A stretch of 41,825 bases of DNA from Kofleriaceae bacterium (GTDB lineage: Bacteria; Myxococcota_A; Polyangia; Haliangiales; Haliangiaceae): positions 64,001-105,825 of the forward strand of contig JBGARE010000037.1 in the NCBI GenBank assembly GCA_044230415.1. The letters run 5' to 3'. Each line of letters starts with the position of its first letter. The first letter of the stretch is position 1. The notes under the pieces are model-generated. The model ran no database searches. It saw only the letters and a program-made list of their open reading frames with translations, and had not been told where the DNA came from. This document shows positions 3,646 through 28,398 of this stretch, in pieces. The translations under genes and the position numbers were made by a program.

Positions 3646-3649
<4 letters not shown>

Positions 3650-4854
3650 AGATCCTTCCGCCACCGGAACGCCTCGCGCTGGAGGCCGCGAAGGAGGAAG
3701 TCGAGCGTGAACGCGACGAACGTGATCACGAACAGCAGCAGATAGATCTGCTCGTAGAGGCCAAGGCGCTGGCTCGTGTTGAGCATCGTGCCGAGCCCGT
3801 GCGGCGTGTTCACGATCTCGACGAGCATGATGTAGCCGAGCGCCAGCCCGAGGAGGAAGCGCAAGCTCGTGATGATGTCCGGCAACGCGAGCGGGATGAG
3901 CACCTTGCGCACGATCTGCCATCGCGACGCGCCCAAAGTCTGCGCTGTCTCGACGTATCTCTCGGGCACGATCGAGACCGCCTTGACCGTGTCGCTGAAC
4001 ACGAACGGAACGACCGCGAGGAAAATGAACATCCACTTCTGCTTCTCGCCGTCACCGAACAACAGCAGCGTGAGCGGGATCAGCGCGCCCATCGGGACCG
4101 AGCGCAAGAAGATGACGAGCGGCTCGAGCGCACTGCCGACACCGCGATTCGACCCCGCCAACACACCGACGGAGATGCCGATCAGCGCGGCGAGGCCGAT
4201 GCCCTTGAACACGCGGATCAGCGTGTCGATCAGCGAGTCGGTGAAGTCGCGATCGAGCAACTTGCCGAGCGCCCCGAACACCTCGCCCGGGCTCGGCAAC
4301 TTCGACGGCGACACGATGCGCGCGGTCGGGTCTTTGCCGTAGGTCAGGACGAACCACAACAGGAGCACGAACGCGATCAGTCCCGCGCCGAGCGCCGCGC
4401 GCACGAGCGGCGGCGGATCCGCGCGCAGCGTCTTCCACCACGGAGGTGCGGTGGGGAGCTTGTTCGGATCGTCGTCCTCGTCGATCGCCTCGGCTTTCGG
4501 CTCGGGCTTCTTCGGCTCGGGCTTCTTCGCCTCGGCTTTCGGCTCGGGCTTCGCGTCGACCTTCGGCGCGGGCTTCGCGTCGACCTTCGCCTCGGGCTTC
4601 GCCTCGGGCTTGGCCTCGGGGGACTTCGCCTCGGCTTTCGGCGTCGCCGGCGGAAGCTCGTCGGGAACCGATGCGGGCGCGGGCTTCGGCGGCGGTTCGC
4701 CCGAGAGCTCGGCTTCGAGCGCGGCGAGCGCTGCTGCTTCGGCCGCAGGATCACGCGGCGGCTTCGCGGGCGCAGCTTCCGCCTTCGGCGCATCCGCCTT
4801 CGGGGGCGCGTCCGTGGGAGCCTTCGGCGGCGGTGGATCCTTCGGTTCGGTCAC
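3646..4854 (-). CDS. ABC transporter permease (BPD_transp_1 / NitT-TauT type) with a ~150-aa low-complexity Pro/Ala/Lys/Glu-rich N-terminal cytoplasmic extension (PEAKPEAK repeats).
   Basis: ORF track 402 aa. Six predicted TM helices in the C-terminal 250 aa. The end resembles the conserved permease loop (TSQRLGLYEQIYLLLFVITFVAFTLDFLLRGLQ). The N-terminus has tandem KPEA/KVDA repeats. Confidence 0.85.
4490..4640. repeat. Tandem short-period nucleotide repeats (ggcttcg / cgggcttcg units) encoding the PEAKPEAK / KVDAKP low-complexity linker of the permease.
   Basis: Directly visible as reiterated 'ctcgggcttcttcg / cgggcttcgcgtcgaccttcg' blocks on the plus strand. Confidence 0.7.
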
Positions 4855-6612: not shown

Positions 6613-7383
6613 TTACTCCGTCACCTTGGTGGGTTCTGCCTTCTGCGGAGCTTCCTCTGCAGGGCCGAGATCCTTCGCGGCCTGGACGACGGGGCTCGTC
6701 TCGGGCGCGCGCATGCCGAGCTCGACCTCGAGATCCTTGAGCGCGTCGTCGGCCATCGAAGCCTCCATCCGCTCCTCGGCTTTGATCTTGTCGATGCCTT
6801 CGTTCGACAGATCGCTCGCGACGCGGGCCTTGCCGCGGTTCGTGTCGATCTTGCGCTGGATGACATCCTCGAGCTGACCGAAGTCCGTCGTGACGTCCAT
6901 GTTGAAGCTCTGCGTGAGCTTCGCGACCTCGGCTTCCGCCTCGGACATCTTCAGCTCGGCGTCGTACTTCGAGATCTTGTCTTTGACCTCGACGAGCTTC
7001 TTGTTCGCGTACTGGATCTTCTTGAGGTTGTTCGTGTACGCGGCCTCGTGCATCGCGAGCTGCTGCTTGTTCTCTTCGAGCTGCGTCTTCGCCTTCGTCA
7101 GCTGCAGCGCGAACGAACCCGCGGTCTCGCGATCGCCGGACTTCAAGTACGCCTTGGCCTGCGCGGTCAGCTTGTTGACCTGGTTTTCGCCGTCCTTGAC
7201 CTGTCGAGACACACGCTCGACGAGGCCACGGTATTGCTCGAGGCCAACACGCCCCTCTTTCAGCTGTTCGACCGCTTGGTCGTACTCGTACTGCATCTGG
7301 GCGATCGGATCGGCCTCCCAGAAGAAGTTGGCGAGCTTGTTGAGCTGAGCCCTGATCGCACCAAAGAACTTTCCGAGAATCAT
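6613..7383 (-). CDS. pspA: PspA/IM30 (Vipp1) family protein, a bacterial ESCRT-III superfamily member.
   Basis: The start was chosen at MILGKFFGAIRAQLNKLANFFWEADPIAQMQYEYDQAVEQLKEGR (a typical PspA N-terminal amphipathic helix), 23 codons inside the track ORF. A GGAGG RBS sits ~8 nt upstream. It is long helical/coiled-coil throughout and ends 3 nt before the SBP gene start. Confidence 0.85.
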   Translation of the reverse strand: MILGKFFGAIRAQLNKLANFFWEADPIAQMQYEYDQAVEQLKEGRVGLEQYRGLVERVSRQVKDGENQVNKLTAQAKAYLKSGDRETAGSFALQLTKAKTQLEENKQQLAMHEAAYTNNLKKIQYANKKLVEVKDKISKYDAELKMSEAEAEVAKLTQSFNMDVTTDFGQLEDVIQRKIDTNRGKARVASDLSNEGIDKIKAEERMEASMADDALKDLEVELGMRAPETSPVVQAAKDLGPAEEAPQKAEPTKVTE

Positions 7384-7501
7384 CGCGAAGCCTCCGGCCC
7401 GCGCGCACGTGGGACGCGGGGGACCACAAGATAGGAGGGACCCAGACCCCACTCAAGCCACCTGGTCAAAAACTGCCCGGTGGCCGCGTACTTGATGAAA
7501 C

Positions 7502-11096: not shown

Positions 11097-11104
<8 letters not shown>
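9722..11104 (-). CDS. Outer-membrane beta-barrel protein (signal peptide; C-terminal ...GVEGQFLF with a terminal Phe).
   Basis: ORF track 460 aa. It has alternating amphipathic beta-strand pattern and a C-terminal aromatic OMP signature. Its start overlaps the upstream response-regulator stop by 8 nt. Confidence 0.65.
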
Positions 11105-12575
<1,471 letters not shown>

Positions 12576-12582
12576 GGGCTGG

Positions 12583-14913
<2,331 letters not shown>

Positions 14914-15359: not shown

Positions 15360-16715
15360 TTGCGCGTGGCACGTGCGACGAAAGCAGCGAGACCGACAGC
15401 GAAGCGTTCGACGACGTCGCGGGCCAAGCAGCCCGCGAAGCGACCGATAGCACGCGCGAAGTCAGCGAAGCCCGCGCGCAAGCCGGCGAGGGCGTCGAAG
15501 CCCGCAGCAACGTCGAAGCGCGCGACACCGGCGAAGCGGCCTGCAAGCAAACCGGCGAAGCAGGCGACGTTGGCGAAGTCGTCCAAGCCGGCGACGCAGG
15601 CGCCTCCGGCGAAGACGTCGAAGCCGGCGATCACGTCGAAGCCGGCGATGACGGCGATCTTCGTCGACGATCGCGGAGCGCAGGTGTGGGGGCCGTTCGA
15701 CGACGCCACGTCGTTCGAGGGCGGATATGCCGCCGTGAAGATCGGCGATCAGTGGGGGTTCATCGATGCGCGCGGGCGCACCGTCGTCGAGCCGCGGTTC
15801 GCGAAGATCGGCGAGTTGGGGAGCGGGGTCGCCGTGATTCGAGACGGCGCGAAGGCCGGGTACTTCGACATCGCGAGCGCTCGCTGGCTCGTCGAACCTC
15901 GGTTCGACTTCGCGCTCGGCTTCGTCGGTGACTACGCATCCGTGGTGATGGGCGGCGAGATCCCCGACTGGGCGGCATCGTTCCAGACACGGCCCGATGG
16001 CGGCAAGTGGGGCGTCATCGATCGCAGCGGCCAGATCGTGATCCCGATCGATCGCGGCCACGCGAGGGTCCACGACGGCATCGCCTACGTGAACGAGGGC
16101 GGGCGCGCGAGCGCGTGGGGGCACGCCTCTGGGGGGCGCAACTACTTCGTCGACCTCGCGACGAACGCTCGCATCGGCGACAACTACGCCTACGCGTCTC
16201 TGTTCGGCGAAGGATTGGCCTGCGTGCAGACCCGCGCGAACAACAAGGAGTGGCGGATCATCGACCGCGCGGCGGCCGAGGTCGGCCGCATCGACCCGAG
16301 CCTCGAGAAGTTCGCACCGCCCGAACCGTTCAGCCAGGGCCGCGCCGTCGTGAGTCCTCAAGGCAAGACGTCGCATCGATCGAAGTACGCGTTCATCACC
16401 AGCACGGGCTCGGTCGCCGCCGCGGATCTCGGCGAGGCGCACGCGTTCTGCGACGGACTCGCAGCCGTCAATCGCGGTGGAGAGAAGGTGCAGGGCGAGT
16501 GCAGGAAGGGGACCTGGGGCTTCCTGGCGCTCGACGGGAGCTTCGTGACGCGACCGGAGTGGGTCGAGACATCGGCGTTCTCCGAGGGGCGCGGCATCGC
16601 GAGGGCGAAGAACGAATATCTCGTCGTCGATCGCGCCGGCGACACCGTGTTCTCGATCCCGTTCTGGATCGCGCCGTATGCGAACGGCGTCGCGCTCGTT
16701 CGCCGACGCGCGTGA
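15360..16715 (+). CDS. WG-repeat (WG_beta_rep) protein with an N-terminal Lys/Ala/Pro-rich histone-H1/AlgP-like repeat region.
   Basis: Multiple '...G.WGFID/ GKWGVID / GTWGFLALDG' repeats. The N-terminal ~95 aa are KPA/AKR repeats (the true start may be the downstream MTAIFVDD). Confidence 0.7.
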   Translation: MRVARATKAARPTAKRSTTSRAKQPAKRPIARAKSAKPARKPARASKPAATSKRATPAKRPASKPAKQATLAKSSKPATQAPPAKTSKPAITSKPAMTAIFVDDRGAQVWGPFDDATSFEGGYAAVKIGDQWGFIDARGRTVVEPRFAKIGELGSGVAVIRDGAKAGYFDIASARWLVEPRFDFALGFVGDYASVVMGGEIPDWAASFQTRPDGGKWGVIDRSGQIVIPIDRGHARVHDGIAYVNEGGRASAWGHASGGRNYFVDLATNARIGDNYAYASLFGEGLACVQTRANNKEWRIIDRAAAEVGRIDPSLEKFAPPEPFSQGRAVVSPQGKTSHRSKYAFITSTGSVAAADLGEAHAFCDGLAAVNRGGEKVQGECRKGTWGFLALDGSFVTRPEWVETSAFSEGRGIARAKNEYLVVDRAGDTVFSIPFWIAPYANGVALVRRRA

Positions 16716-22856: not shown

Positions 22857-23909
22857 ATGCACCTCACATCGCTCGTCTCGCTTGTCCGTCTCGCATTCAT
22901 CGCGCTCGTCGCCTCCGCGTGTTCGCCCGAACCGAATGATCAGGTCGCTGCGCCGGACGCCGCCGCACCGCGCGCTCCGCTCGATCCGAGCGGCACGTTC
23001 GTCGCGCACAGCACGTACGCGCTCGCGGCTCCACCACCGCAGCTCGCACCGCTGCTCGCCGAGCTATCGGCCGCGACCGACGGCATCGACGATCCGAGCG
23101 GCTACCTCGTGGACCTCGTCGTCGCCGAGCTGCCGGAAGGAACGGCGCGAACGATCGGCTCGGCGCTCGCGCCGTACGTCGCGTGGTACGTGAACAGCCG
23201 GCTGTCGGAGTTCGCGCCGACCTTCGTTCCGAGCGTGCGTGCGATGGCGACCGGCGCGCAGCGCATCGCGACGCGGTTCGGGACGATCGAAGAGCTGCGG
23301 ATCGTCGCGGACGGCGAAGCGAAGACCGACGTCTCGGTCGCCCCGCCACGGACAGCGAGGGTACGTCGCACCATCGTCGGTGCGCAGTTCGATGAGGTCG
23401 CGATGCACTTCGATGACCTCGGTCTGCCCGATGCGACCATCGACACGAACGCGAGCGTCGAGACGTTCGCGTCGTCACGCGTGCCGGATCAGCTCGCGAT
23501 CGCGACGCACGAGGTCTCCGTTCCGTTCGCCGCGTGGTTCCGCGCGGGCTTCGATCGCGCGGTGGTTCCCACCGTCGTCCCCGGAGCGACCGATCTCGCG
23601 AGCGCGTTGCGTACGCTCGTGAGTTGCCCGCGCCTCGGCGTGTTGATCGCGGAGGCGCTCGAGGTGGGATCGCCGTCGCTCTACGCGCAGGCGTGCAGCC
23701 TCGGGCTCGGGGTCGGTGCGCGCGCGATCTACGAGCGGTTCCCGAGCGCGACCGACGCGCAGCGGTACCGGCTCGTGCTGACCGGCTCCGCGACCGCGCT
23801 CGACTACGACAAGGACGGCGTCATGGACTCGATCGCCGACGGCACGTGGACCGGTCGGCTCGACGACACCGCGGTCGGCGCCGCTTTTTTCGACGGAGCG
23901 TCGCGATGA
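22857..23909 (+). CDS. Lipoprotein, hypothetical.
   Basis: ORF track 350 aa. Signal + lipobox IALVASACS. Its stop overlaps the downstream Uma2 start (ATGA). Confidence 0.55.
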   Translation: MHLTSLVSLVRLAFIALVASACSPEPNDQVAAPDAAAPRAPLDPSGTFVAHSTYALAAPPPQLAPLLAELSAATDGIDDPSGYLVDLVVAELPEGTARTIGSALAPYVAWYVNSRLSEFAPTFVPSVRAMATGAQRIATRFGTIEELRIVADGEAKTDVSVAPPRTARVRRTIVGAQFDEVAMHFDDLGLPDATIDTNASVETFASSRVPDQLAIATHEVSVPFAAWFRAGFDRAVVPTVVPGATDLASALRTLVSCPRLGVLIAEALEVGSPSLYAQACSLGLGVGARAIYERFPSATDAQRYRLVLTGSATALDYDKDGVMDSIADGTWTGRLDDTAVGAAFFDGASR

Positions 23910-24529
23910 GCCGCGGTACATTCGCCCGCATGGCGTGGCACTACACGATCGCGGACTACGTGCGGCTGGAGGAGCGCTCGAACGTCAAGCACGAGTACAT
24001 CCGGGGCGAAATTCGGGTGATGGGTGCGGGTGCGGAAGACGACCGCGAGATCCGTGAGATGGGCGGTGGAACGATCGAGTACGCGAGGATCGGGATCGCA
24101 GTCGCCTACCTGCTGACCGACCAACTTCGGGGGCGGCCGTGCGCAGTCTACTCGTCCGACGCGCGAGTGCGTGTCGTCGCTTCGGACTTGATCACATATC
24201 CCGACCTCGTCGTCTGCTGCGGGTCTGTGCAGCAGGATGTCGACGATCGATGCGCCATCATCAATCCGAGGGTTGTCGTCGAGGTCACGAGCTCGTCGAG
24301 TGAGAGCTACAACCGAGGCGGGAAGCTAGACCACTACAAACTCGTTCCATCGATACTCGATGTCGTGATCGTCTCGCATCGCGACCGGTCCATCGAAGTC
24401 CATCACCGCACTGAAGAGGGTGAGTGGACAATCGAACGTGGGGGACCGGGCGAGAGCGTGCACGTGTCCTCGATCGGGTGCGTGCTCGACGTGGACGCGG
24501 TCTATCACGATCCGCTCGCGGCATCGTAG
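23906..24529 (+). CDS. Uma2-family (DUF820) putative restriction-endonuclease-fold protein.
   Basis: The start was computed at MSRGTFARMAWHYTIADYVRLEE (codon 125 of track ORF 23534..24529). The family-typical acidic core reads ...EYIRGEI..., DLVVC..., PRVVVEVTSSSS. Confidence 0.7.
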   Translation: MSRGTFARMAWHYTIADYVRLEERSNVKHEYIRGEIRVMGAGAEDDREIREMGGGTIEYARIGIAVAYLLTDQLRGRPCAVYSSDARVRVVASDLITYPDLVVCCGSVQQDVDDRCAIINPRVVVEVTSSSSESYNRGGKLDHYKLVPSILDVVIVSHRDRSIEVHHRTEEGEWTIERGGPGESVHVSSIGCVLDVDAVYHDPLAAS

Positions 24530-24541
24530 CGCCCGCCGCGG

Positions 24542-25897
<1,356 letters not shown>

Positions 25898-26127
25898 ATC
25901 TCGTGGGTATCACGCCGTCGCGCCTCGCGCGAGCAGCGGGTCACGCGAGCAGCGGGTACCGCATGATCGCGCTGGTGCCCCGCCGCATCGCCGTCTGCCA
26001 GTTGACGGCGCCCAGCCGCACTCGAGGACGATGCTCTTCTCCCGGATCGTCGCGACGAGCGATCGAGAGAGCGCGTCCGCGGGGTGAACCGACGATGTCC
26101 GGATCGAGCCTGTAACAGACGTATTCG

Positions 26128-26536
26128 ACGCCCACGCGGCGGGCTACGTGCCCGCCTTTCCGCGGAAGCCGTCGTCGATGTTCGATGCATGGCGTCGAGT
26201 CGACACGCCTTCGCGTCGTCCGGGCGGCCGAGGTCTTCGCCGTCGATGCGGACGTTCGCGCCCACGGGCGTCGAGTCGCGCATCGAGTCGTAGCACTTCG
26301 CATTCGTGCAGGCCGCTGCAGTCGGCGTGCGGACGTACGCGCCCACGTGGGCGTCGAGTCGGTGCGCCCACGTGGGCGTCGAGTCGCCGGTCGTTGCGGC
26401 GTGCGCGTTTCCGCGGAAGCGTTGTCGATGTTCGATGCGCCCACGTGGGCGGGCTACATGGCAGCTGGTCGTTGCGGCGTGCGCGTTTCCGCGGAAGCGT
26501 CGTCGATGTTCGATGCGCCCACGTGGGCGTCGAGCG
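26128..26536. repeat. Intergenic repeat array. There are two full 62-bp direct repeats (period 78 bp; 26390..26451 and 26468..26529) plus a degenerate partial copy (~26150..26200). Each carries the perfect palindromes TTCCGCGGAA and CGCCCACGTGGGCG. Extra copies of CGCCCACGTGGGCG followed by TCGAGTCG lie at 26340..26353 and 26365..26378, with degenerate copies near 26128 and 26258.
   Basis: Seen directly in the sequence. Coordinates were cross-checked against track ORFs 26148.. and 26306.., which translate the repeats (AFPRKR...SMRPRGR twice). It lies between the histidine-kinase stop (26596) and the response-regulator start (25897). Confidence 0.75.
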
Positions 26537-26595
26537 TGCGCACGGGATCTCGTGGTGGTCGCGATCGGATCAACTCACCGGTGATCCGGTGGTGT

Positions 26596-28398
26596 TCAGG
26601 TCGCGTTCGGAATCACGAGCCGAAACTCGGCCCCACGGCCATCGGGACCCTCGCCCAGCTCGATGGATCCGCCCGCGGTGGCGACCAGGTGCTTGCACAC
26701 GGCGAGGCCAAGGCCAGTGCCGACACCCGCGGCCTTCGTCGTGAAGAACGGATCGAACACCTTCGCGCGATCGGCGGGCTTCACGCCCGGACCCTCGTCG
26801 CGCACGAGGATCTGGGTCGCGATGCCGCCGGGCGCGGGCTTCACGATCAGGGTGATCGTGTTCCCGCGCGACGTGCCATCGGGGTCTTGTGTTCCCGACA
26901 TCGCCTGCGCGGCGTTCTGGACGAGGTTGACGAGGACTTGCTGGAGCGAGTGCGCGTCGATGGCGAGCGGCGTGGTCGACTGCACGTCGGTGACGTAGCG
27001 GACCTTCGCCTTCTTGAGCTGCGGTTCGAGGAGGGCGCCCACGTGCCGCGCGACCTGCGCCGGGTCGCTCTCGCCGCGATCGGTGGCGCTGGTGGCGACG
27101 GGGCCAGCGGTGACGATCGATCCCGAGCCGCGGGGCGTGCGTGCGTATTCGAGGAGGCCGCCGATGATCTTCTTCATCCGCTCGGCCTCGCTCGCGATGA
27201 GCTCGAGGCCGGCGCGATCGGGGTGGCCCTCGGGTTTGTCCTCGAGCAAGAGGTTCGCGTAGCCCATCACCGTGGTCAGCGGGTTGTTGACCTCGTGCGC
27301 GACCTGCGCGGACATCACGCCGACGGATGCGAGGCGATCACCGCGCGCGAGGGCGGCTTGCAGCTCGGCGCGTTCGGCGATGCGCTTGGCCATCTCGTCG
27401 AGGCGCTGGCCGAGCACGCCGATCTCGCCGGGACCGTCGACGACGTGGTCATCGTCGGGGGCGATCGTGCCGCTCGCGATGGCATCGGCGCGGCGGGCGA
27501 GGGCTTCGAGGGGGCGTGTGAGGCGCGTCGCGAAGAACACGCCGAGGGCGAGGGCGAGGGCGAGGGCGGCACCGCCGATGATCAAGGTGTCGCGCGTGGT
27601 GCGGCGGGCGAGGGCGTAGGCCTGGGCTTCGGGTTGTTGGTGAAGGATGGCCCACCGCACGCCGCGCAGTGACTGATAGCTCGAGAGGTTTCGGTAGGCG
27701 GTGACCCAGCCGTGCGTCGCGATCGTCCCTTCGACCGACGAGGCAAGCGCGCGATCGACCGCGGGATCCTTTCCGGCGAGGCTCTGCGTGCCGACCGGGC
27801 CTTGTTCGCTCGACGCGACCGGGACACCCGCGCCGTCGACGACGAGCACGCGCGCACCGGCGCCGAGTCGCGCGGCCGACAAGAGGTCGCGGACGAAGCC
27901 GAGGTCGAGGCTCGCGACGACGACGCCCATGAGCTCGCCCGTGCGGCCACGGGCCTGGACGACGAGCTGGACGACGGTGCGGCCTTCTACGTGGCGTGCA
28001 TCGCCGATGTAGCCGCCGAAGCTGTGGCTGCCGACGTCCGCGCCCGCGGGGACGACGTCGCCGTAGAGGAGCGCGCCCTCGGGATCGACGATCGACAGCG
28101 AGTGCACGATCGGCACGTCGCGGCGCAGTCGCTCGAGGAGGAGCTGCGTGGTCTTCGTGTCGGTGGGCGCGTCGGCCCACGTGGCGGCGGCGAGCTCGAC
28201 CGTGCGCCGCGAGTCCTGCAGCGTGCCGTCGAGGGCGGCGCCGAGCGCGCGAATGTGGGCGAGCGCGCCGCGCAGGACTTCGCGTTCGACATCGCCGCGC
28301 GCGCGAAAGATCGCGAGGGCACCGACGACGATCGTGGGCACGATCGCTGCGAGCGCGAGGACGAGCAGGACTCGCCAGCGCAGGGTGCCTTGGTTCAC
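26596..28398 (-). CDS. Sensor histidine kinase: TM1, a periplasmic (Cache-like) sensor domain, TM2, HAMP, HisKA (HEVNNPL), HATPase_c.
   Basis: The start was taken at the GTG (VNQGTLRWRVLLVLALAAIV), 111 codons inside track ORF 26596..28731. That start overlaps the upstream gene's stop (GTGA). The kinase C-terminal boxes are present (GLGLAVCKHLVATAGGSI). Confidence 0.85.
   Translation of the reverse strand: MNQGTLRWRVLLVLALAAIVPTIVVGALAIFRARGDVEREVLRGALAHIRALGAALDGTLQDSRRTVELAAATWADAPTDTKTTQLLLERLRRDVPIVHSLSIVDPEGALLYGDVVPAGADVGSHSFGGYIGDARHVEGRTVVQLVVQARGRTGELMGVVVASLDLGFVRDLLSAARLGAGARVLVVDGAGVPVASSEQGPVGTQSLAGKDPAVDRALASSVEGTIATHGWVTAYRNLSSYQSLRGVRWAILHQQPEAQAYALARRTTRDTLIIGGAALALALALGVFFATRLTRPLEALARRADAIASGTIAPDDDHVVDGPGEIGVLGQRLDEMAKRIAERAELQAALARGDRLASVGVMSAQVAHEVNNPLTTVMGYANLLLEDKPEGHPDRAGLELIASEAERMKKIIGGLLEYARTPRGSGSIVTAGPVATSATDRGESDPAQVARHVGALLEPQLKKAKVRYVTDVQSTTPLAIDAHSLQQVLVNLVQNAAQAMSGTQDPDGTSRGNTITLIVKPAPGGIATQILVRDEGPGVKPADRAKVFDPFFTTKAAGVGTGLGLAVCKHLVATAGGSIELGEGPDGRGAEFRLVIPNAT

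Follow-up and report, generated by a model that had tools for sequence, protein, structure and literature searches.

We analysed a 41.8-kb stretch of DNA (the window), which lies within the 124-kb metagenome contig k141_192763 (ENA ERZ27258564), and concentrated on an array of palindrome-led repeats between a histidine kinase gene and the gene of its partner, an NtrC-family response regulator. Homologues of the regulator place the organism, an uncultured soil bacterium, in Kofleriaceae (Myxococcota). The two genes lie on the minus strand, and the array occupies the spacer between the kinase stop and the regulator start. An earlier note on this DNA had put that spacer at about 700 bp; it measures 698 bp. 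The stop of the kinase gene ends at 26596 and the kinase C terminus is intact (…EFRLVIPNAT, then the stop), while the called start at 28398 overlaps the stop of an upstream gene of 275 amino acids (aa). The features of the junction, in window coordinates, are as follows.

24542-25897, minus strand: gene of an NtrC-family sigma-54-dependent response regulator, 451 aa, GTG start; Response_reg, Sigma54_activat and HTH_8 (Pfam)
25898-26595: non-coding spacer from kinase stop to regulator start, 698 bp
25920-25951: separate 16-nt tandem duplication in the non-array part of the insert, GCGCCTCGCGCGAGCA / GCGGGTCACGCGAGCA
26129-26536: seven-unit mosaic array, each unit (21-82 nt) led by a palindrome
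26129: array unit (P0), 59 nt, degenerate; CGCCCACGCGG-CG, with a substitution and a 1-nt deletion in the palindrome
26158-26167: 10-nt palindrome TTCCGCGGAA, exact, in decayed unit P0
26188: array unit, 70 nt, degenerate; 8-nt deletion inside the palindrome
26258 (26258/9): array unit, 82 nt; 2-nt deletion in the palindrome, CGCCCAC--GGGCG
26340: array unit, 25 nt, perfect palindrome
26340-26353: 14-nt palindrome CGCCCACGTGGGCG, copy P3, exact
26365: array unit, 73 nt, perfect palindrome
26365-26378: 14-nt palindrome CGCCCACGTGGGCG, copy P4, exact; holds the only difference between the window and locus L001 (26375)
26409-26418: palindrome TTCCGCGGAA, exact, in unit P4
26438: array unit, 78 nt, perfect palindrome
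26438-26451: 14-nt palindrome CGCCCACGTGGGCG, copy P5, exact
26487-26496: palindrome TTCCGCGGAA, exact, in unit P5
26516: array unit, 21 nt, truncated, perfect palindrome
26516-26529: 14-nt palindrome CGCCCACGTGGGCG, copy P6, exact
Within the array: second repeat module, pattern TTCCGCGGAAGC-N2-4-GTCGATGTTCGATGC
26596-28398, minus strand: histidine kinase gene, 600 aa as called (longest open reading frame reaches 28731); dCache_1, HAMP, HisKA and HATPase_c (Pfam)

The repeats that the earlier note had described were all recovered. The two full copies correspond to a pair of units spaced 78 nt apart (26386-26451 and 26464-26529) that are 97% identical, the partial copy lies at about 26129-26188, and the two extra tandem units are 25-nt units at 26339-26386 that TRF aligns with a 100% match. 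Likewise, both palindromes are perfect, CGCCCACGTGGGCG being present in four exact copies and TTCCGCGGAA in three. With three decayed units added, the array comprises seven. The four perfect copies of the 14-nt palindrome lie on the kinase side and the three decayed copies on the regulator side. Since the units come in two flavours, the palindrome being followed either by TCGAGTCG or by GGCTACRTG…TTTCCGCGGAAGC…GTCGATGTTCGATG, the array is a mosaic. Neither CGCCCACGTGGGCG nor TTCCGCGGAA occurs in exact form outside the array in the window, and the array alone has four occurrences of CCACGTGG, where 0.76 would be expected in the entire window. The array is beyond chance, because whole flanks are repeated and not the palindromes alone, and because of this excess of CCACGTGG.

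The 14-mer is self-complementary, so that any two copies are able to pair. The spacer folds more stably than shuffled sequences, with z = -4.3 on the sense strand and z = -2.8 on the antisense strand, and adjacent palindrome copies are predicted to pair into G+C stems of 14 bp (-34 to -45 kcal/mol), each enclosing one unit.

All open reading frames (ORFs) in the spacer have a flat G+C content of about 0.7 at the three codon positions (GC1/2/3), versus a GC3 of 0.82-0.93 in the flanking genes; none of them has a Pfam match, and the gene calls of the source leave the spacer empty. On these three grounds a coding region or pseudogene was ruled out. Neither a sigma-70-type promoter nor an intrinsic terminator was found in the spacer, and no Rfam family reached an E value below 0.3 there. 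The spacer is not a restriction-site-rich or synthetic polylinker, its density of palindromic hexamers being 35.8/kb versus a window mean of 33.4/kb. On the minus strand at 25894-26574, the frame of the kinase gene, past stops at 26598 and 26577, has no further stop across the whole insert, some 226 codons, until a TGA that overlaps the GTG start of the regulator gene (GTGA). Given the G+C content and internal repetition, this open frame is statistically unremarkable, and its base composition carries no sign of a gene.

Two familiar kinds of palindrome or repeat cluster were set aside. CRISPR arrays consist of identical repeats of 23-55 nt with unique spacers of similar length and cas genes nearby; here the inter-repeat sequences are themselves repeated (97%), the spacing varies from 25 to 82 nt and the window genes include no cas domains. 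The array resembles parS sites (TGTTNCACGTGNAACA) in its locally reiterated palindrome with a central CCACGTGG core, and the resemblance extends to the core only. A parS/Noc-like site was rejected because the outer arms are CGC/GCG rather than TGTT/AACA and no parS-like site (up to three mismatches) is present in the array.

The earlier note had also pointed to a related motif upstream of pspA, and this relation did not hold. The pspA gene (6613-7386, minus strand; PspA_IM30 confirmed) does have a CACGTG motif at 7398-7414, just upstream of its ribosome-binding site. That motif shares only CACGTGGG with the array and has three mismatches to the 14-mer. CACGTG occurs 28 times in the window, 24 of them outside the array, and CACGTGGG occurs twice outside it, which is the level of chance.

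Kinase–regulator junctions in related lineages

The DNA around the closest homologues of the regulator was retrieved from eight related Kofleriaceae lineages, about 100 kb of loci in all (L-numbers below are labels of the compared loci). In these lineages the regulator is 90-98% identical as a protein; nucleotide identity is 86-91% for the regulator gene and 78-84% for the kinase gene. The gene order at the locus (YicC, guanylate kinase, a gene of no known function, kinase, regulator) is conserved. The spacing between kinase and regulator genes was as follows.

L008/L009: -8 bp (the genes overlap)
L004: 15 bp
L081: 28 bp
L084: 28 bp
L079/L080: 30 bp
L005: 31 bp
L010: 39 bp
L006/L007: 2.1-kb insert of unrelated sequence; 522-aa ORF on the opposite strand

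The two genes thus overlap or are separated by a gap of 15-39 bp in seven of the eight lineages, and no part of the repeat was found in the relatives' loci of any of the eight. The eighth lineage is a more distant relative (regulator 90% identical), and its insert spans L006:7881-10000, at the same positions in L007. In addition to the 522-aa ORF, this insert has ORFs of 54 aa and 76 aa, the 54-aa call being absent in L007. NCBIfam gave no match to the 522-aa and 76-aa ORFs, and none of the ORFs has a Pfam family on record. We found no homology between the L006/L007 insert and that of the window.

Because seven lineages have spacings of -8 to 39 bp and the eighth has an unrelated insert, the 698-bp spacer appears to be a lineage-specific insertion into an operon that was ancestrally compact and probably translationally coupled. 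A second kinase/regulator pair in the window (11097-14913, minus strand), a 776-aa protein with HisKA/HATPase_c and an NtrC-type protein of 492 aa separated by a 7-nt spacer, offers an internal example of the compact layout.

The same comparison bears on the proposal, put forward in the earlier note, that the palindromes form a multimeric enhancer array for a transcription factor or a bacterial enhancer-binding protein. Such enhancers (upstream activating sequences, UAS) are usually followed, roughly 80-200 bp downstream, by a sigma-54 -24/-12 promoter. The earlier note had called for a search for such a promoter nearby. No match to TGGCAC-N5-TTGC with up to two mismatches was present on either strand of 25898-26595; over the window the same threshold gave 11 matches versus 10.2 expected by chance. 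The best look-alike picked out by eye, TGGCAG-N…-TGC, has the wrong spacing.

Read more broadly, the palindromes would be reiterated sites for a dimeric transcription factor, serving either as an enhancer for the NtrC-type regulator or as the operator array of a spacer promoter that expresses the regulator independently. In favour of this are four 14-bp and three 10-bp perfect dyads within 400 bp beside a sigma-54 activator gene with an HTH_8 domain. Moreover, sigma-54 activators of Myxococcus use clustered tandem half-sites (PMC9765219), and the repeat-containing spacer between senX3 and regX3 of Mycobacterium tuberculosis is reported to drive senX3-independent expression of regX3 (PMC4213456). 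The likeness to the Nla28 UAS of Myxococcus xanthus lies in clustered, reiterated dyad or tandem motifs beside a sigma-54 activator gene in a myxobacterial genome. However, the array motif is unrelated to the Nla28-type half-site CT(C/G)CG(C/G)AG, which is absent from the spacer, and no sigma-54 promoter is within reach; the array is also not conserved at the orthologous locus, and it sits between coding regions that normally form one operon. The absence of the array from all eight lineages despite a regulator 90-98% identical places it outside the conserved circuit. Nor does the spacer contain a sigma-70-type match for an independent promoter, and the palindrome is found nowhere else in the 55,073 bp of source contig that we searched (the window plus 8.6 kb and 4.7 kb beyond it), so nothing points to a regulon. 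In three copies the palindrome has decayed through internal deletions, and a population variant breaks one of the perfect copies. The enhancer reading fails because of conservation, promoter context and motif comparison, and we regard service as transcription-factor sites of either kind as quite improbable; a dedicated protein-binding function of the array is the less likely account of it.

Borders of the insert and reality of the array

Two models of the insertion boundaries were considered, each resting on a short duplication.

25907-26546: inserted DNA under boundary model A, 640 nt, putative
25898-25906: 9-nt direct repeat ATCTCGTGG, copy 1, exact (sense CCACGAGAT), adjoining the regulator start codon
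26547-26555: 9-nt direct repeat ATCTCGTGG, copy 2, exact, 41 nt past the kinase stop
25915-26608: inserted DNA under boundary model B, in which the last four codons of the kinase would derive from the insert
25906-25914, minus strand: sense CGTGATACC, identical to the last kinase codons of relatives
26609-26617: CGTGATTCC, counterpart of CGTGATACC, inside the present 3' end of the kinase gene

The exact 9-nt direct repeat could have arisen as a target-site duplication, or it could mark a microhomology junction. In random trials, a 9-mer at a fixed end recurred in 62 of 20000 (about 0.003), and any shared 9-mer was present in 282 of 5000 random 60-nt pairs (about 0.056). The CGTGATACC/CGTGATTCC pair, which shares CGTGAT(A/T)CC, is a second candidate duplication that competes with the exact 9-mer. 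The copy at 25906-25914 lies 8 nt before the regulator GTG, as in the nearest relative, L008, and may be what is left of the original 3' end of the kinase gene, or a duplicate of that end. Alignment of the 49-nt head of the spacer to the spacers of relatives, intended to choose between the models, gave no significant result (best p about 0.05). Under either model, the borders look like the anatomy of an insertion with a short junction duplication. Terminal inverted repeats were not found, the best gapless match between the ends being 8/14 under model A and 7/14 under model B; the ends of the array itself match at 13/14 positions, which is a by-product of the palindrome plus TCGA.

The assemblies are metagenome assemblies built at k = 141, and three of them contain the array. 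The source samples are ENA ERZ27258564, ERZ27258450 and ERZ27258471. The full 698-bp spacer is present in assemblies of two independent samples, identical except for one single-nucleotide polymorphism (SNP), and the regulator-proximal 452 nt are present in an assembly of a third sample (L002). Locus L001, 21,356 bp from the assembly of another sample, matches the window at every base except window position 26375 (L001:9523), which lies in palindrome P4 and turns CGCCCACGTGGGCG into CGCCCACGTGTGCG on the plus strand. Either the array is hypervariable or it is prone to assembly or consensus noise. The number of units is equal in the two full-length assemblies and the partial one. The 11.6-kb contig L002 ends at window position 26349, inside palindrome P3; this fits a repeat array breaking the assembly, and low coverage could have done likewise.

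That the array is an assembly artefact, such as a chimeric join or a spurious de Bruijn loop, is extremely unlikely. The value of k, the break of L002 inside the array and the position within the array of the sole difference between two assemblies might each raise the suspicion. However, the spacer was recovered from two independent samples and 452 nt of it from a third, the units differ by substitutions and have distinct flanks that can be resolved at k = 141, and the genes on either side are intact and run colinear with their counterparts in relatives.

Copies elsewhere and comparison with known repeats

We searched for further copies in the source contig and in public collections. No second copy of the repeat modules was found in the 55,073 bp, which by our own Poisson-style estimate excludes only densities above roughly one per 18 kb. 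The collections were scanned with one exact 20-mer, GCGCCCACGTGGGCGTCGAG, of which the array has three copies. In 185,579 species-representative genomes there were 30 matches, each the only one in its genome, against a hand estimate that G+C-rich genomes would yield a few dozen by chance; no match extended past about 47-48 nt. The matches in Kofleriaceae/Myxococcales (L031 and L019) lie, by eye, in coding-like sequence without repeat structure. Similarly, JGI metagenomes, which include close relatives, gave 38 single, non-extending matches at the level of chance. Neither the 20-mer nor a gapped two-palindrome pattern had a match in IMG/VR, and a blastn search of the whole spacer found nothing in PLSDB (plasmids) or INPHARED (phages); a phage or plasmid origin of the spacer was rejected on these grounds. 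As weak evidence, the array translated in one reading frame had no match among 5.8 billion proteins. No transposase or RAYT-like gene was present among the window genes or the called genes of L001, L082 and L083.

These searches bear on a second suggestion of the earlier note, that the array is a REP- or MITE-like element. The part of it that stood is an insertion with short border duplications; the part that did not is dispersal, since no further copies were found in the 55 kb or the public collections, and the ends carry no terminal inverted repeats. Stated in full, the array would be a locus or cluster of a dispersed REP/BIME-, MITE- or MIRU-like family specific to the source species, and a mobilising enzyme or recombination would have placed it here. 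In comparison with each of the eight related lineages it is inserted DNA, the 9-nt direct repeat at its borders could be a target-site duplication, and its short hairpin-forming palindromes, arranged in a mosaic and modular way between co-transcribed genes, recall BIME, BOX and MIRU. The end of contig L002 inside the array also agrees with such a family. REP-type families are typically species-specific, and with the nearest genome about 9% diverged, public genomes may miss the family. Against this stand the absence of a second module copy in the source contig, the lack of any genome with more than one copy of the 20-mer, the single chance-level matches in metagenomes that contain close relatives, the poor end matches of the candidate inserts (8/14 and 7/14), the absence of a transposase or RAYT-like gene from the window and the empty protein search with the single translated frame. 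Families of this kind are species-specific, and the collections scanned include no genome of the source species; the reading therefore keeps some probability, and we rate it as somewhat unlikely.

The likeness to the REP/BIME/REPIN elements of Enterobacteria and Pseudomonas lies in short, G+C-rich, hairpin-capable palindromes in mosaic clusters, located between co-transcribed genes and absent from orthologous sites in relatives. A short hairpin-forming palindromic unit is indeed present here, as the perfect 14-nt and 10-nt palindromes. What defines REPs, however, is dispersal in hundreds of copies together with a cognate RAYT (an IS200/IS605-like Y1 transposase), and neither dispersed copies (in the 55 kb) nor a RAYT (among the window genes) was found. 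In addition, BIME copies alternate in orientation, whereas the units here are direct repeats, and the palindromes here differ from those of REPs in being perfect and only 14 nt long. With MITEs the insert shares its small size, its non-coding nature, its insertion relative to relatives and a possible 9-bp target-site duplication. It differs from them in having no terminal inverted repeats at the ends of either candidate insert and no other copies found, and its internal tandem amplification is atypical of MITEs.

The closest analogue appears to be the MIRU repeats between senX3 and regX3 of M. tuberculosis. That intergenic region carries two or three tandem MIRU units of 77/53 bp, found only in the M. 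tuberculosis complex and M. leprae, and it is this MIRU-containing spacer that reportedly allows regX3 expression without senX3 (PMC4213456). In both cases tandem units (about 77/53 bp there; 78, 73 and 25 bp here) lie exactly between the histidine kinase and regulator genes of one operon, and in both cases they are confined to one lineage. Like a MIRU-type minisatellite, the array consists of tandem units of 59-82 nt, together with one of 25 nt, that are intergenic inside an operon. Moreover, the open frame of a MIRU is said to end in a stop that overlaps the downstream start and so to bridge the flanking genes; here, too, the frame open through the repeats ends at GTGA over the regulator start. 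The phylum is different, and the likeness is drawn from position and architecture, not from sequence similarity. MIRUs occupy about 40 loci per genome, a density of about one locus per 100 kb, and their copy number varies between strains, whereas no second locus was seen in the 55 kb here and no copy-number variant in the three assemblies. The units here also differ from MIRUs in being led by perfect palindromes. Finally, promoter activity is reported for the MIRU spacer.

In kind, the array is a private intercistronic palindromic minisatellite within a putative lineage-specific insertion; the sequence family is new and the category is known.

Interpretation and genomic surroundings

Our preferred reading, which we consider probable, is that a non-coding insert of about 640-690 nt sits at the kinase–regulator junction and that a palindrome-led unit was amplified in it in place. 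Local amplification is indicated by the 97% identity of the 78-nt units, the 100% identity of the 25-nt units and the gradient from perfect to indel-decayed copies. The SNP in palindrome P4 is in keeping with an array that changes faster than the sequence around it, assembly noise in the repeats being the alternative. In such a course of events, non-coding DNA would have entered the junction of a compact kinase–regulator operon in this lineage, and the unit starting with the 14-nt palindrome would have been amplified locally after insertion, or already in the donor DNA, likely by slippage or unequal recombination between palindrome copies. The older, regulator-proximal copies would then have decayed through small deletions inside the palindrome, and the four kinase-proximal copies would have stayed perfect.

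Because no terminator was seen, the array is probably transcribed within the kinase–regulator mRNA. Neighbouring 14-mers, when single-stranded, would pair into 14-bp G+C-rich stems, and the resulting hairpins in a read-through transcript could change how stable the kinase and regulator parts of the mRNA are or how they are processed. Judged from the relatives, the ancestral tight linkage of the two genes is broken. The most likely consequence would be this loss of tight coupling, possibly joined by hairpin effects on mRNA stability or processing.

Several points weigh against a local insertion and amplification. The insertion boundaries are ambiguous, since two short duplications fit and neither is decisive alone. 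The four perfect 14-nt palindromes could be read as kept by selection rather than as young. Since the regulator gene has diverged by about 9% from that of the nearest relatives, the insertion need not be very recent. The genome and metagenome scans relied on a single exact 20-mer that leaves the TTCCGCGGAA…GTCGATGTTCGATG module outside, and a dispersed family of low density could extend beyond the 55 kb of source genome searched. Furthermore, transcription through the array and effects at the RNA level are steps that we infer.

A bolder proposal treats the array as the first observed locus of an undescribed palindrome-led, MIRU/REP-like family of Kofleriaceae. Because it splits an operon in which kinase and regulator are normally fused, it would serve as a module between the two cistrons, either an internal promoter or an RNA-hairpin barrier, that can be tuned through the number of units, which would set the regulator-to-kinase ratio; this would be a case of convergence with the MIRU spacer between senX3 and regX3 in M. 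tuberculosis. We consider this proposal unlikely. If the source genome does carry the unit at many loci, it would represent a new repeat family for Myxococcota and a possible marker for strain typing.

If the insertion reading is right, a palindrome array as striking as this one, lying beside the gene of a sigma-54 regulator, can turn out to be a recently amplified private insertion instead of an enhancer, and comparison of the orthologous junctions in relatives settles quickly which of the two is at hand. The same junction was hit independently in two lineages, once by the insert in the window and once by the 2.1-kb insert of L006/L007. For this reason the tight coupling of a conserved kinase–regulator pair seems dispensable, and the junction appears to tolerate insertions repeatedly.

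Among 120 listed matches to the regulator protein, mostly metagenome sequences, identity is 84-98%, and the named ones are Kofleriaceae, Myxococcales or Deltaproteobacteria. The regulator is unusually conserved, its homologues across Kofleriaceae metagenome-assembled genomes being 85-98% identical; the partner kinase gene is 78-84% identical in nucleotides to that of the same relatives, and the short spacers cannot be aligned between relatives. Directly downstream of the regulator gene lie a Uma2-family endonuclease gene (23906-24529, plus strand) and a 350-aa gene of no known function. Since the order and orientation of these two genes are rearranged among close relatives (L001, L004, L005 and L010 compared), the neighbourhood downstream of the regulator gene appears to be fluid.

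Elsewhere in the window, tandem repeats are present at 4485-4642 (periods of 12/24 nt) and 15434-15667 (9/18/36 nt). Their periods are multiples of three, and they lie inside ORFs with strong GC3 (3646-4854, minus strand, and 15360-16715, plus strand, respectively). They are presumably low-complexity, repetitive protein segments with no relation to the array.

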